In this document: positions 18,587-19,539 of the stretch, piece after piece
Layout: each line of letters begins with the position of its first letter
Numbering within the stretch: position 1 is the first letter of the stretch
Origin: Microthyrium microscopicum
Lineage: Eukaryota
Direction of reading: 5' to 3'
Length of the DNA stretch: 64,000 nucleotides
Assembly (NCBI GenBank): GCA_010405405.1
Contig: MU004237.1
Span: 1,809,345-1,873,344 of the forward strand
Made by a program: the position numbers and the translations under genes
Notes under the pieces: model-generated
Told to the model about the DNA's origin: nothing
Seen by the model: the letters and a program-made list of their open reading frames with translations, nothing else
The model's database searches: none

Positions 18587-18663
18587 GTTGTCAGGTCTCC
18601 AAGGAAATACTCTACATAAAAGTTCGGAAAGAACGCAGCGATTTCTTTTTTCTCATCATCCAA
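18587..18663 (-). ncRNA. Box C/D snoRNA, U55/SNORD55-like, with an additional 5.8S guide
   Basis: C box ATGATGA (18659-18653), D' CCGA, D CTGA (18594-18591); TCGCTGCGTTCTT is antisense to 5.8S AAGAACGCAGCGA; CCTTGGAGAC is antisense to LSU GTCTCCAAGG. Confidence 0.85.
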
Positions 18664-18819
18664 AGGATTGGGGCGGAAAGGGTTGAGCTTACCTTTCTTG
18701 TCAACCTACAGGTTGGGATATCATTCATTATCTGCCAGTAGAAAGTGTTAGTCAAACGCTCACAGACACAGTTTTGTGCGACGGCTATGTTGATATGCCA
18801 CAGACAGCAATTGCTATCT

Positions 18820-18974
18820 TGAGTCAGGCTGTAAGTTGTTAGTCATTGGCCACGTCAAATGTGACGGGATTGCATACCTCATTAAATCAGAATTTTCAGT
18901 GTTGATAATATCACAGAGGAAGTGTTGTTTAGGCACGACCAAATCAAACAGTGTGAATGTTGATCATCATACAA
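18820..18974 (-). ncRNA. snR51: Box C/D snoRNA, snR51 homologue, interrupted by a 49-nt intron (18877-18829)
   Basis: C box ATGATGA (18970-18964); ATTCACACTG-t-TTGA(D') fits LSU Um2729; after splicing CTGATTTAATGAG|C-CTGA(D, 18827-18824) fits SSU Am100. Confidence 0.85.
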
Positions 18975-19070
18975 GGCAATGTGTTGCGTTGAGAAAGACT
19001 TTTTACTCACTGCTCCAAGTTAGCAGATAGTCTCGCAAAGCTTGAAGCAAAGATGGCATGTTGAAGTTTG

Positions 19071-19200
19071 AAAATCAGCTGACGAGTTCTCAACAAGTAC
19101 TTCCCGCCCGTCACCCACAGAGTTTGTACGCTCTGATACGAGGAGTGGGAGCTAAGGGGTACACATCTGTCCGCCCGTTCGTTCAAAGTTCGTCATGTAG
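19071..19200 (-). ncRNA. snR70: Box C/D snoRNA, snR70 homologue
   Basis: C box ATGACGA (19196-19190), D CTGA (19078-19075); ACGGGCGG-a-CAGA(D')-TGTGTAC is antisense to SSU GTACACACCGCCCGT (D'+5 = yeast Cm1639); lies between snR41 and snR51 as in yeast. Confidence 0.82.
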
Positions 19201-19301
19201 AAGGTTGGTTGGGGTTGAGGAGTTGATGATGGCATACCTATCGTCAACAATGTTAGCTTTCAATCTTGGCATGGAGAGAAGAAATCTGTGCTGTTTGTTT
19301 G

Positions 19302-19393
19302 CGGTTCATACAAGGCTGAAACTTATGCAGGAAATATCGACATGGAAATTCAGGACGAGGAATGCCAATTCACGGTCCGGTATAATCAAAACC
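19302..19393 (-). ncRNA. snR41: Box C/D snoRNA, snR41 homologue
   Basis: C box TTGATTA, D' CTGA (19353-19350), D ATGA (19309-19306); TAAGTTTCAGCCTTG is antisense to SSU CAAGGCTGAAACTTA (D+5 = yeast Gm1126); TTCCTCGT before D' fits Am541. Confidence 0.85.
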
Positions 19394-19539
19394 AAAGAGT
19401 GTGTGGAGAATGAGATGGGGAAAAGCTTACCTTTACAATTTAACTACGTGGCGGGCATGGCGACAAGGACTGAATGAAAGCTCTATAATAGCGTTAGCTG
19501 ATGCAGAATGTTGCCAACATGAATGGAAAAGAGTTGAAT

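Follow-up and report, generated by a model that had tools for sequence, protein, structure and literature searches.

The window analysed here, a 64-kb stretch of Microthyrium microscopicum DNA taken at its full length, contains a region that Rfam models recognize as the snR41-snR70-snR51 cluster. The matches of this cluster were located as follows:

19301-19395: snR41/Afu_455, Rfam match below threshold
19058-19200: snR70, Rfam match below threshold
18875-18974: snR51, Rfam match below threshold
18588-18663: Afu_294, the only Rfam match of the cluster above its threshold

The snR51 model (RF01214) scored 32.4 bits against a gathering threshold of 44. This shortfall arises because a 49-nt intron parts the guide from box D and displaces the last model positions: the alignment covers box C, the D' guide and CUGAUUUAAUGA, and the final positions are lost where the intron begins. 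Nevertheless, both snR51 guides (the Um2729 and Am100 equivalents) and the neighbours snR41 and snR70 were found. Like S. cerevisiae snR51 (RF01214), the gene of the window agrees with the model consensus in box C, in its D' guide ATTCACACTGT and in its D guide CTGATTTAATGA, lies with snR41 and snR70, and has a CUGA inside the guide. The two genes differ in setting, polycistronic in yeast and within a host-gene intron in the window, and in the spacer, which is A-rich in yeast whereas the window has there a predicted 12-nt Um2724 guide. That guide gave a local match to the snR67 model (RF01177; in S. cerevisiae the guide for 25S Gm2619 and Um2724) of 21.8 bits (E 0.014, 201 bases searched) over model positions 65-83. 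These are the only positions that align with this separate gene family, although the D guide, its box and the predicted target are the same in both. Aligned in full, the snR67 model reached 19.5 bits against a threshold of 55, and the Gm2619 guide is missing. Judged by its guides, boxes and synteny, the predicted locus belongs to the snR51 family and shares only a target with snR67; the best explanation is that it is the snR51 orthologue of a filamentous ascomycete, of the Afu-277 / Nc CD6 family. A protein comparison placed the DNA in Ascomycota, and it is the nested intron and the snoRNA matches of A. fumigatus type that point to the filamentous group.

As guides we accepted antisense elements of at least 10 nt that end next to a D or D' box and place a known methylated nucleotide opposite the fifth base; target sites were taken from the identity to snR67 and from the literature. 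All features of the snR51 locus are given on the minus strand of the window:

18972..18980, minus strand: terminal (external) stem, 5' strand, ATTGC and CTTG, just upstream of box C
18964..18970, minus strand: box C, ATGATGA, aligned with box C of the Rfam snR51 model
18949..18958, minus strand: D' antisense element ATTCACACTG, equal to the snR51 model consensus, for the equivalent of yeast 25S Um2729
18944..18947, minus strand: D' box TTGA, one spacer base after the D' guide
18911..18916, minus strand: C' box CTGTGA (core GTGA), 8 bases upstream of ACACTG
18891..18903, minus strand: third antisense element AACACTGAAAATT, for the equivalent of yeast 25S Um2724, followed by CTGA
18887..18890, minus strand: internal CTGA, candidate alternative D box whose four bases also open the Am100 guide
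18878..18890, minus strand: SSU Am100 antisense element CTGATTTAATGAG, aligned with the D guide of the snR51 model and continued by C18828 after splicing
18829..18877, minus strand: predicted nested intron of 49 nt, GTATGC ... ACTAAC ... CAG, the 'intron B' of PMC3596301
18824..18827, minus strand: distal (terminal) D box CTGA, after which comes the 3' strand of the terminal stem
18810..18821, minus strand: terminal (external) stem, 3' strand, CAAG, a 3-nt bulge and GCAAT, which pairs with the 5' strand

This is the layout of a box C/D snoRNA, with box C at the 5' end, CUGA at the 3' end and a terminal stem that joins them. In the stem, CTTG (18975-18972) pairs with CAAG (18821-18818) and ATTGC (18980-18976) with GCAAT (18814-18810), and these pairs are present in the minimum-energy fold of the unspliced precursor. 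A donor, a branch site and an acceptor lie between the Am100 element and box D, so that the Am100 guide adjoins the distal D box only once the 49-nt intron is out; the fifth base upstream of the distal CTGA would then be the same T as in yeast. The original prediction had described this nested intron and the distal CTGA (18827-18824) in the same way, and its reading of ACACTGAAAAT-T-CTGA agrees with the minus strand, with ACACTGAAAAT at 18902-18892, T at 18891 and the internal CTGA at 18890-18887.

Three antisense elements were therefore found by the definition given above, two equal to the snR51 consensus and one equal to the snR67 consensus with the same spacing. The third had been put forward as a guide of the Um2724 type in the D+5 register, and it bears this out: positions 18903-18887 are identical at 17 of 17 bases to positions 65-81 of the snR67 model, which comprise its D guide and D box (consensus AACACUGAAAAUUCUGA). 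With a guide and a one-base spacer as in snR67, A18895, five bases upstream of the internal CTGA, is predicted to face the Um2724 equivalent. Six bases of the third guide, ACACTG, overlap the target of the D' guide. In yeast, deletion of snR67 abolishes Um2724 methylation, and the pairing of snR67 weakly overlaps that of snR51 (PMC8053091); this weak overlap fits the ACACTG common to both elements of the window.

RNA evidence on the host gene came from one public run, listed as guessed RNA and stored as contigs, three of which are identical to the window. Their joints place the intron around Afu_294 at 18689-18522 and remove the snR41 intron at 19430-19238. A fully spliced contig joins 19432 to 18731 without ambiguity and skips 700 nt, and snR51 is therefore intronic. 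In a second contig the first intron is out and 19234-18919 is retained. One contig of this run stops at 18919, and none covers 18732-18918, the part with the predicted nested intron and 3' ends. The intron that holds snR51 is the following:

18732..19010, minus strand: outer host-gene intron III, with an acceptor CAG that ends at 18732 and a joint seen in an RNA contig

Its donor, GTGAGT, is regenerated from the exon base G19431 and TGAGT (19009-19005). Exon 1 has G19431 as its last base, ahead of GTAAGC. Removal of 19430-19238 at the first joint leads directly up to GTATGC at 19237, and TGAGT comes right after the second acceptor CAG, whose last base is 19010. G19431 is absent from the contig with the 19432>18731 joint, which fits a third donor regenerated from the last G of the exon plus TGAGT. 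This contig is direct evidence of recursive splicing with loss of one exon base (19432-18731, minus strand). A single donor that chooses among three acceptors, which the available text of PMC3596301 leaves open, was rejected as a misfit with the loss of G19431. The host is a non-coding snoRNA gene with three abutting introns, and snR51 occupies the last of these. At 19483, immediately past TATAG and a branch-like GCTAAC (19483-19500, minus strand), a high-depth contig departs from the window, and at least one further upstream exon of the host gene must therefore lie outside the stretch compared with the run.

Both the host structure and the nested intron have a published precedent. Luo et al. 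(2013, PMC3596301) described three abutting host introns spliced stepwise and, in the intronic snR51 of Euascomycetes, a nested intron B between the antisense element and box D. The window has the same intron in the same place and the same intron-intron-intron arrangement of the host. The available text of that paper treats intron B as an example of intron gain only and differs from the present account in having no internal D box, third guide or isoforms.

Homologues were collected by scanning a metagenome collection for the D' guide and the Am100 guide, both exact and 35-65 bases apart. At least 116 stretches were obtained. One of them (L017) has no box C and was dropped, and the other 115 of the 116 listed are snR51 genes of the same layout. 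Between box C and the internal CTGA they represent at least 84 distinct sequences (83 metagenomic ones and the window), an arbitrary sample to be counted as distinct sequences and not as independent lineages. The matches listed fall into these states:

Nested intron and third guide: 35 of 84 distinct sequences
Nested intron, no third guide: 33 of 84
No intron, no third guide: 12 of 84
Cut by the contig end, no third guide: 3 of 84
No intron, third guide: 1 of 84 (L061)

The 12 bases before the internal CTGA lay outside the search pattern. Conservation of the third guide in relatives was one of the checks on which the original prediction had staked it, and the outcome agrees with it: among the matches listed, the 12-mer, ACACTGAAAATT, is identical in 34 of the 84 distinct homologues, has one change in 2, two changes in none, three changes in 1 and at least four in 47. 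The single changes are A to G at the first base and T to A at the eleventh (same matches). In the 36 guide-bearing sequences among the matches listed, identity amounts to only 38% in the upstream 8-mer, 39% in the 5' flank and 27% in the intron. When the variable part was clustered at 80% identity, 38 clusters were obtained from the matches listed, 16 of them guide-bearing and none mixed. Such bimodal conservation of the 12-mer amid scrambled flanks argues that the third guide is real and under selection; as far as these sequences tell, it is a discrete state kept over deep divergence.

These counts also dispose of the simplest alternative, i.e. that the sequence next to the CUGA is complementary by chance, the CUGA itself being present for other reasons. 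The 11-mer ACACTGAAAAT alone is indeed not rare, since with at most one mismatch it has 2 matches in the 64-kb window where 1.93 are expected. Against chance stand the exact 17-base identity to snR67 in the right register and the 12-mer itself, identical in 34 of 84 homologues and in none with two mismatches among the matches listed. Conservation refutes this reading, to which we attach practically no probability. The significance of the third guide thus comes from its position and conservation and not from the rarity of the 11-mer. A second exact copy of the third guide was not found within the 64-kb window.

Homologous nested introns are present in 68 of the 84 distinct homologues among the matches listed. 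Those that are complete measure 46-68 nt and end in AG, one base and CTGA, in phase, with a single CCGA (among the matches listed). Because of this in-phase AG-N-CTGA, the same base of the Am100 guide becomes the fifth from box D after splicing, as in yeast. The predicted distal D box is also under selection. In 34 guide-bearing sequences among the matches listed, the duplex between the 5' flank and the distal 3' flank has a mean energy of -8.3 kcal/mol and a z of -2.75 versus shuffles; the z was -1.0 in 34 sequences without the guide (among the matches listed). In the same comparison with shuffles, a stem that closes box C with the internal CUGA showed no such signal in the matches listed (z -0.50 in 34 guide-bearing sequences and -0.32 in 34 without). 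We consider it very improbable that the short RNA alone is functional and that the Am100 guide survives as a relic along with the nested intron and the distal D box. Such a reading would account for the snoStrip and N. crassa annotations, which in their available form take the internal CUGA as box D, and for the Rfam snR51 score below threshold (32.4 versus 44 bits). Yet the acceptor-N-CTGA stays in phase despite an intron that cannot be aligned (27% identity among the matches listed), a strong covarying terminal stem is found at the distal box, especially in the guide-bearing relatives among the matches listed, and A. fumigatus yielded a 100-nt cDNA with an 18S Am97 target (PMC2377427).

Some differences in intron signals were observed between the two kinds of homologue. 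The weak acceptor AAG is commoner with the third guide (18 of 37 distinct sequences versus 2 of 37, among the matches listed and uncorrected for kinship); counted by cluster it occurs in 8 of 14 guide-bearing and 2 of 12 other clusters, among the matches listed, which may reflect shared ancestry. The branch sequence is CTGAC rather than CTAAC in 19 of 37 sequences with the guide and 5 of 37 without it (among the matches listed, kinship uncorrected). Donor strength showed no clear-cut difference between guide-bearing and other introns among the matches listed. In the window, a helix of 8 pairs, 3 of them G-U, can form over the nested donor between TGCCTTGT (18978-18971) and ATGAGGTA (18882-18875); this pairing has an energy of -7.5 kcal/mol and a z of -1.4, and it is not conserved in relatives.

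The interpretation must account for two D boxes, one of which is also part of a guide. One CUGA cannot be a strand of the kink-turn and at the same time pair with 18S rRNA, and two RNP forms are therefore most likely. Besides, if the third guide is a methylation guide, for which its conservation and exact register argue, there must be an RNP with box C closed on the internal CUGA; in the spliced RNA the distance of 19 bases between the target of the third guide and the distal D box would be too great for methylation. We thus favor an alternative choice of D box that would give two RNP forms, of which only the Am100 form would require splicing, and we give this reading an even chance of being right. 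In both forms, box C, the D' guide and the D' box would target the Um2729 equivalent. The short form would use box C and the internal CUGA, with the 3' tail trimmed off, and would act on Um2729 and Um2724. The long form would be spliced, with the terminal stem closed on the distal D box, and would act on Um2729 and Am100. Nested splicing and assembly on the internal box, 9 nt ahead of the nested donor, would probably compete in time, and the Um2724 form as such would need no splicing. Binding of the internal box by the core, two 3' ends and Um2724 methylation by the snR51 RNA would follow from this arrangement. The conservation of the 12-mer (34 exact, 2 with one change and none with two among the 84 sequences of the matches listed), together with the 17/17 identity of guide and box to snR67, speaks for two forms; against them, the short form would have no selected terminal stem. 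The original prediction of two forms is accordingly sustained in that the internal CTGA cannot be the D box and pair with 18S rRNA at once, and weakened in that a terminal stem is found at the distal box only. The internal CUGA exists in yeast snR51 as well, and we know of no short form there.

A stricter version, which takes up the original proposal, would have the internal D box used only by unspliced RNA and the distal one only by spliced RNA, with the nested intron existing or being kept to set the ratio of the two. The part that the Am100 guide needs removal of the intron holds, but the third guide is also kept without an intron. The case is L061 (a metagenome contig of 1109 nt; match at 401-475), which has all three antisense elements and no nested intron, so that its RNA would run uninterrupted through two CTGA boxes spaced by 14 nt; its terminal stem has 8 bp. 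An unspliced RNA need therefore not be a precondition for using the third guide. Nor does the nested intron appear to exist for the sake of a switch, since 33 of the 68 distinct intron-bearing homologues among the matches listed are without the third guide, and PMC3596301 places the gain of the intron in the ancestor of all Euascomycetes. What favors a strict switch is the position of the nested donor, 9 nt after the internal CUGA, where U1 binding and snoRNP assembly should, we infer, exclude each other. The pairing of the 5' flank TGCCTTGT with ATGAGGTA across the donor in the window (-7.5 kcal/mol) and the enrichment of AAG acceptors with the third guide (18/37 versus 2/37 among the matches listed) point the same way. 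However, relatives do not share the stem across the donor (z -0.5 among the matches listed), the AAG association is uncorrected for phylogeny and the intron of the window itself has good signals (ACTAAC, CAG). The strict switch is thus less likely than the alternative choice of D box, and we regard it as unlikely. Still less probable, in our view, is that the 49-nt intron splits the output of the gene between an LSU guide form (Um2724) and an SSU form (Am100) with kinetics setting the ratio. In that case the short form would arise by core-protein assembly on the internal CUGA, or by release of the 5' exon after the first step at weak AAG acceptors, and completed splicing would give the long form.

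The main rival to two forms is that the long RNA alone is functional, that ACACTGAAAATT is an auxiliary docking or chaperone pairing on the same LSU region and that the CUGA is kept for Am100. We hold this to be rather unlikely. The internal CUGA is fixed by its 18S target in all snR51 genes, that of yeast included, extra base-pairing elements are common in box C/D snoRNAs (PMC3116282), and selection of a terminal stem is seen at the distal box only, all of which suit an auxiliary element. Such an element should pair beside the target and not on it, however, and the six bases ACACTG overlap the D' target, so that both elements cannot pair with one rRNA together. Furthermore, the invariant spacing to the CUGA puts a known methylated U exactly at the fifth base, and the Um2724 guide has moved between fungal snoRNA families, with some lineages predicted to carry it on snR51 only (available text of PMC5824354). 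Extra base-pairing for the D' guide was also considered as the main reading and rejected because both elements share the six target bases. A kink-turn of the C' box with the internal CUGA was rejected by inference, as the guide would become a closed 20-nt loop.

Two forms, as we favor, can be compared with the snoRNAs reported from other fungi. For snR51 of Onygenales and some Dothideomycetes, 25S-2724 was reported as a conserved interaction of the D box (PMC5824354), and the snR51 / CD_6 family of that work has the same third guide, with the internal CUGA read as box D. It differs from our reading in that its available text mentions no nested intron, distal D box or Am100 guide for these RNAs. 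From A. fumigatus, Afu-277 was obtained as a 100-nt cDNA in 4 clones; it clusters with Afu-455 and Afu-294, and its predicted targets are 26S Um2706, 18S Am97 and 5.8S Cm47 (PMC2377427). Its third target thus differs from that of the window, 5.8S Cm47 instead of the Um2724 equivalent, and Um2701, which corresponds to Um2724, was assigned to Afu-380 in the same species (PMC2377427). N. crassa CD6 is a 76-nt cDNA, called exon-encoded, for its D' target 26S Um2687 only; in the available table of that study no snoRNA is given for the Am100 equivalent, and Um2682, which corresponds to Um2724, is assigned to CD49 (PMC2780460). Afu-277 and CD6 are orthologues in the same cluster that together match the sizes of the proposed long and short forms: by our estimate from relatives, an RNA that starts at box C and stops shortly after the internal CTGA would measure about 76 nt, and 100 nt would fit the spliced form. 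The 76-nt cDNA, on the other hand, comes from a species whose snR51 has no reported third guide, which implies that a short form can be a by-product. The genome of M. microscopicum may also hold a redundant Um2724 guide, as other fungi have such guides in Afu-380 and in snR54, which guides the Um2724 site in Sordariales (PMC5824354).

Among known systems, the closest functional precedent, going by the available text of van Nues and Watkins (PMC5389607), is the alternative C'/D' folds of yeast U18, snR48 and snR13, each proposed to form two differently assembled snoRNPs. As proposed here, one snoRNA would there make two snoRNPs that methylate different nucleotides. In U18, snR48 and snR13, however, the shift is of 1-2 nt within one target region and involves the internal C'/D' motif, whereas in the spliced RNA of the window 14 nt would separate two D boxes of terminal type, whose separate guides serve different ribosomal subunits and one of which depends on splicing. 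A literature search gave nothing relevant on an internal or alternative D box, a third guide, a stwintron with a snoRNA or RiboMeth-seq in filamentous fungi, and no isoform model that joins the internal box, the third guide and the intron was found in the text available to it. In its available text PMC3938493, on partial Am100 methylation in yeast, contains nothing on box usage. The nested intron, the Um2724 D target of snR51 and the three-target Afu-277 were therefore known separately, and their combination into a form with dual D boxes, as predicted here, appears to be new.

If both D boxes are used, one gene would supply two guide RNPs that share one guide, with one RNP for each ribosomal subunit. 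The ratio of the forms would then be tied to the splicing of a tiny intron, a simple way to vary rRNA methylation. Should the kinetic split be true, the stoichiometry of the two methylations would be set by the spliceosome, with ribosome heterogeneity in many filamentous ascomycetes as a consequence. The locus also bears on annotation. SnoRNA finders and cDNA entries that end at the internal CUGA (N. crassa CD6, snoStrip CD_6) overlook the Am100 guide, the intron hides the D box from models derived from yeast snR51, and, across Pezizomycotina, the spliced Am100 guide is probably absent from snR51 annotations that stop at the internal CTGA. It is moreover a clear example of how the Um2724 target moves between snoRNA families by way of a CUGA already there for another reason.

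The remaining parts of the snR51 RNA vary more among the relatives. The position of the D' box is occupied by TTGA, GTGA, CTGA, ATGA or ACTA in the matches listed. The spacing of 8 bases between the C' box and ACACTG recurs for AUGA in several relatives, e.g. L006, and ranges from 6 to 10 among the matches listed. A hairpin between D' and C' covaries in most relatives among the matches listed, often with the loop GTAACGA or TAAACGA. At 18943-18917 (minus strand) of the window, it is recognizable only by its 5' half and loop (GGTCGTGCC TAAACAA), and the C' box that follows has GTGA and not ATGA.
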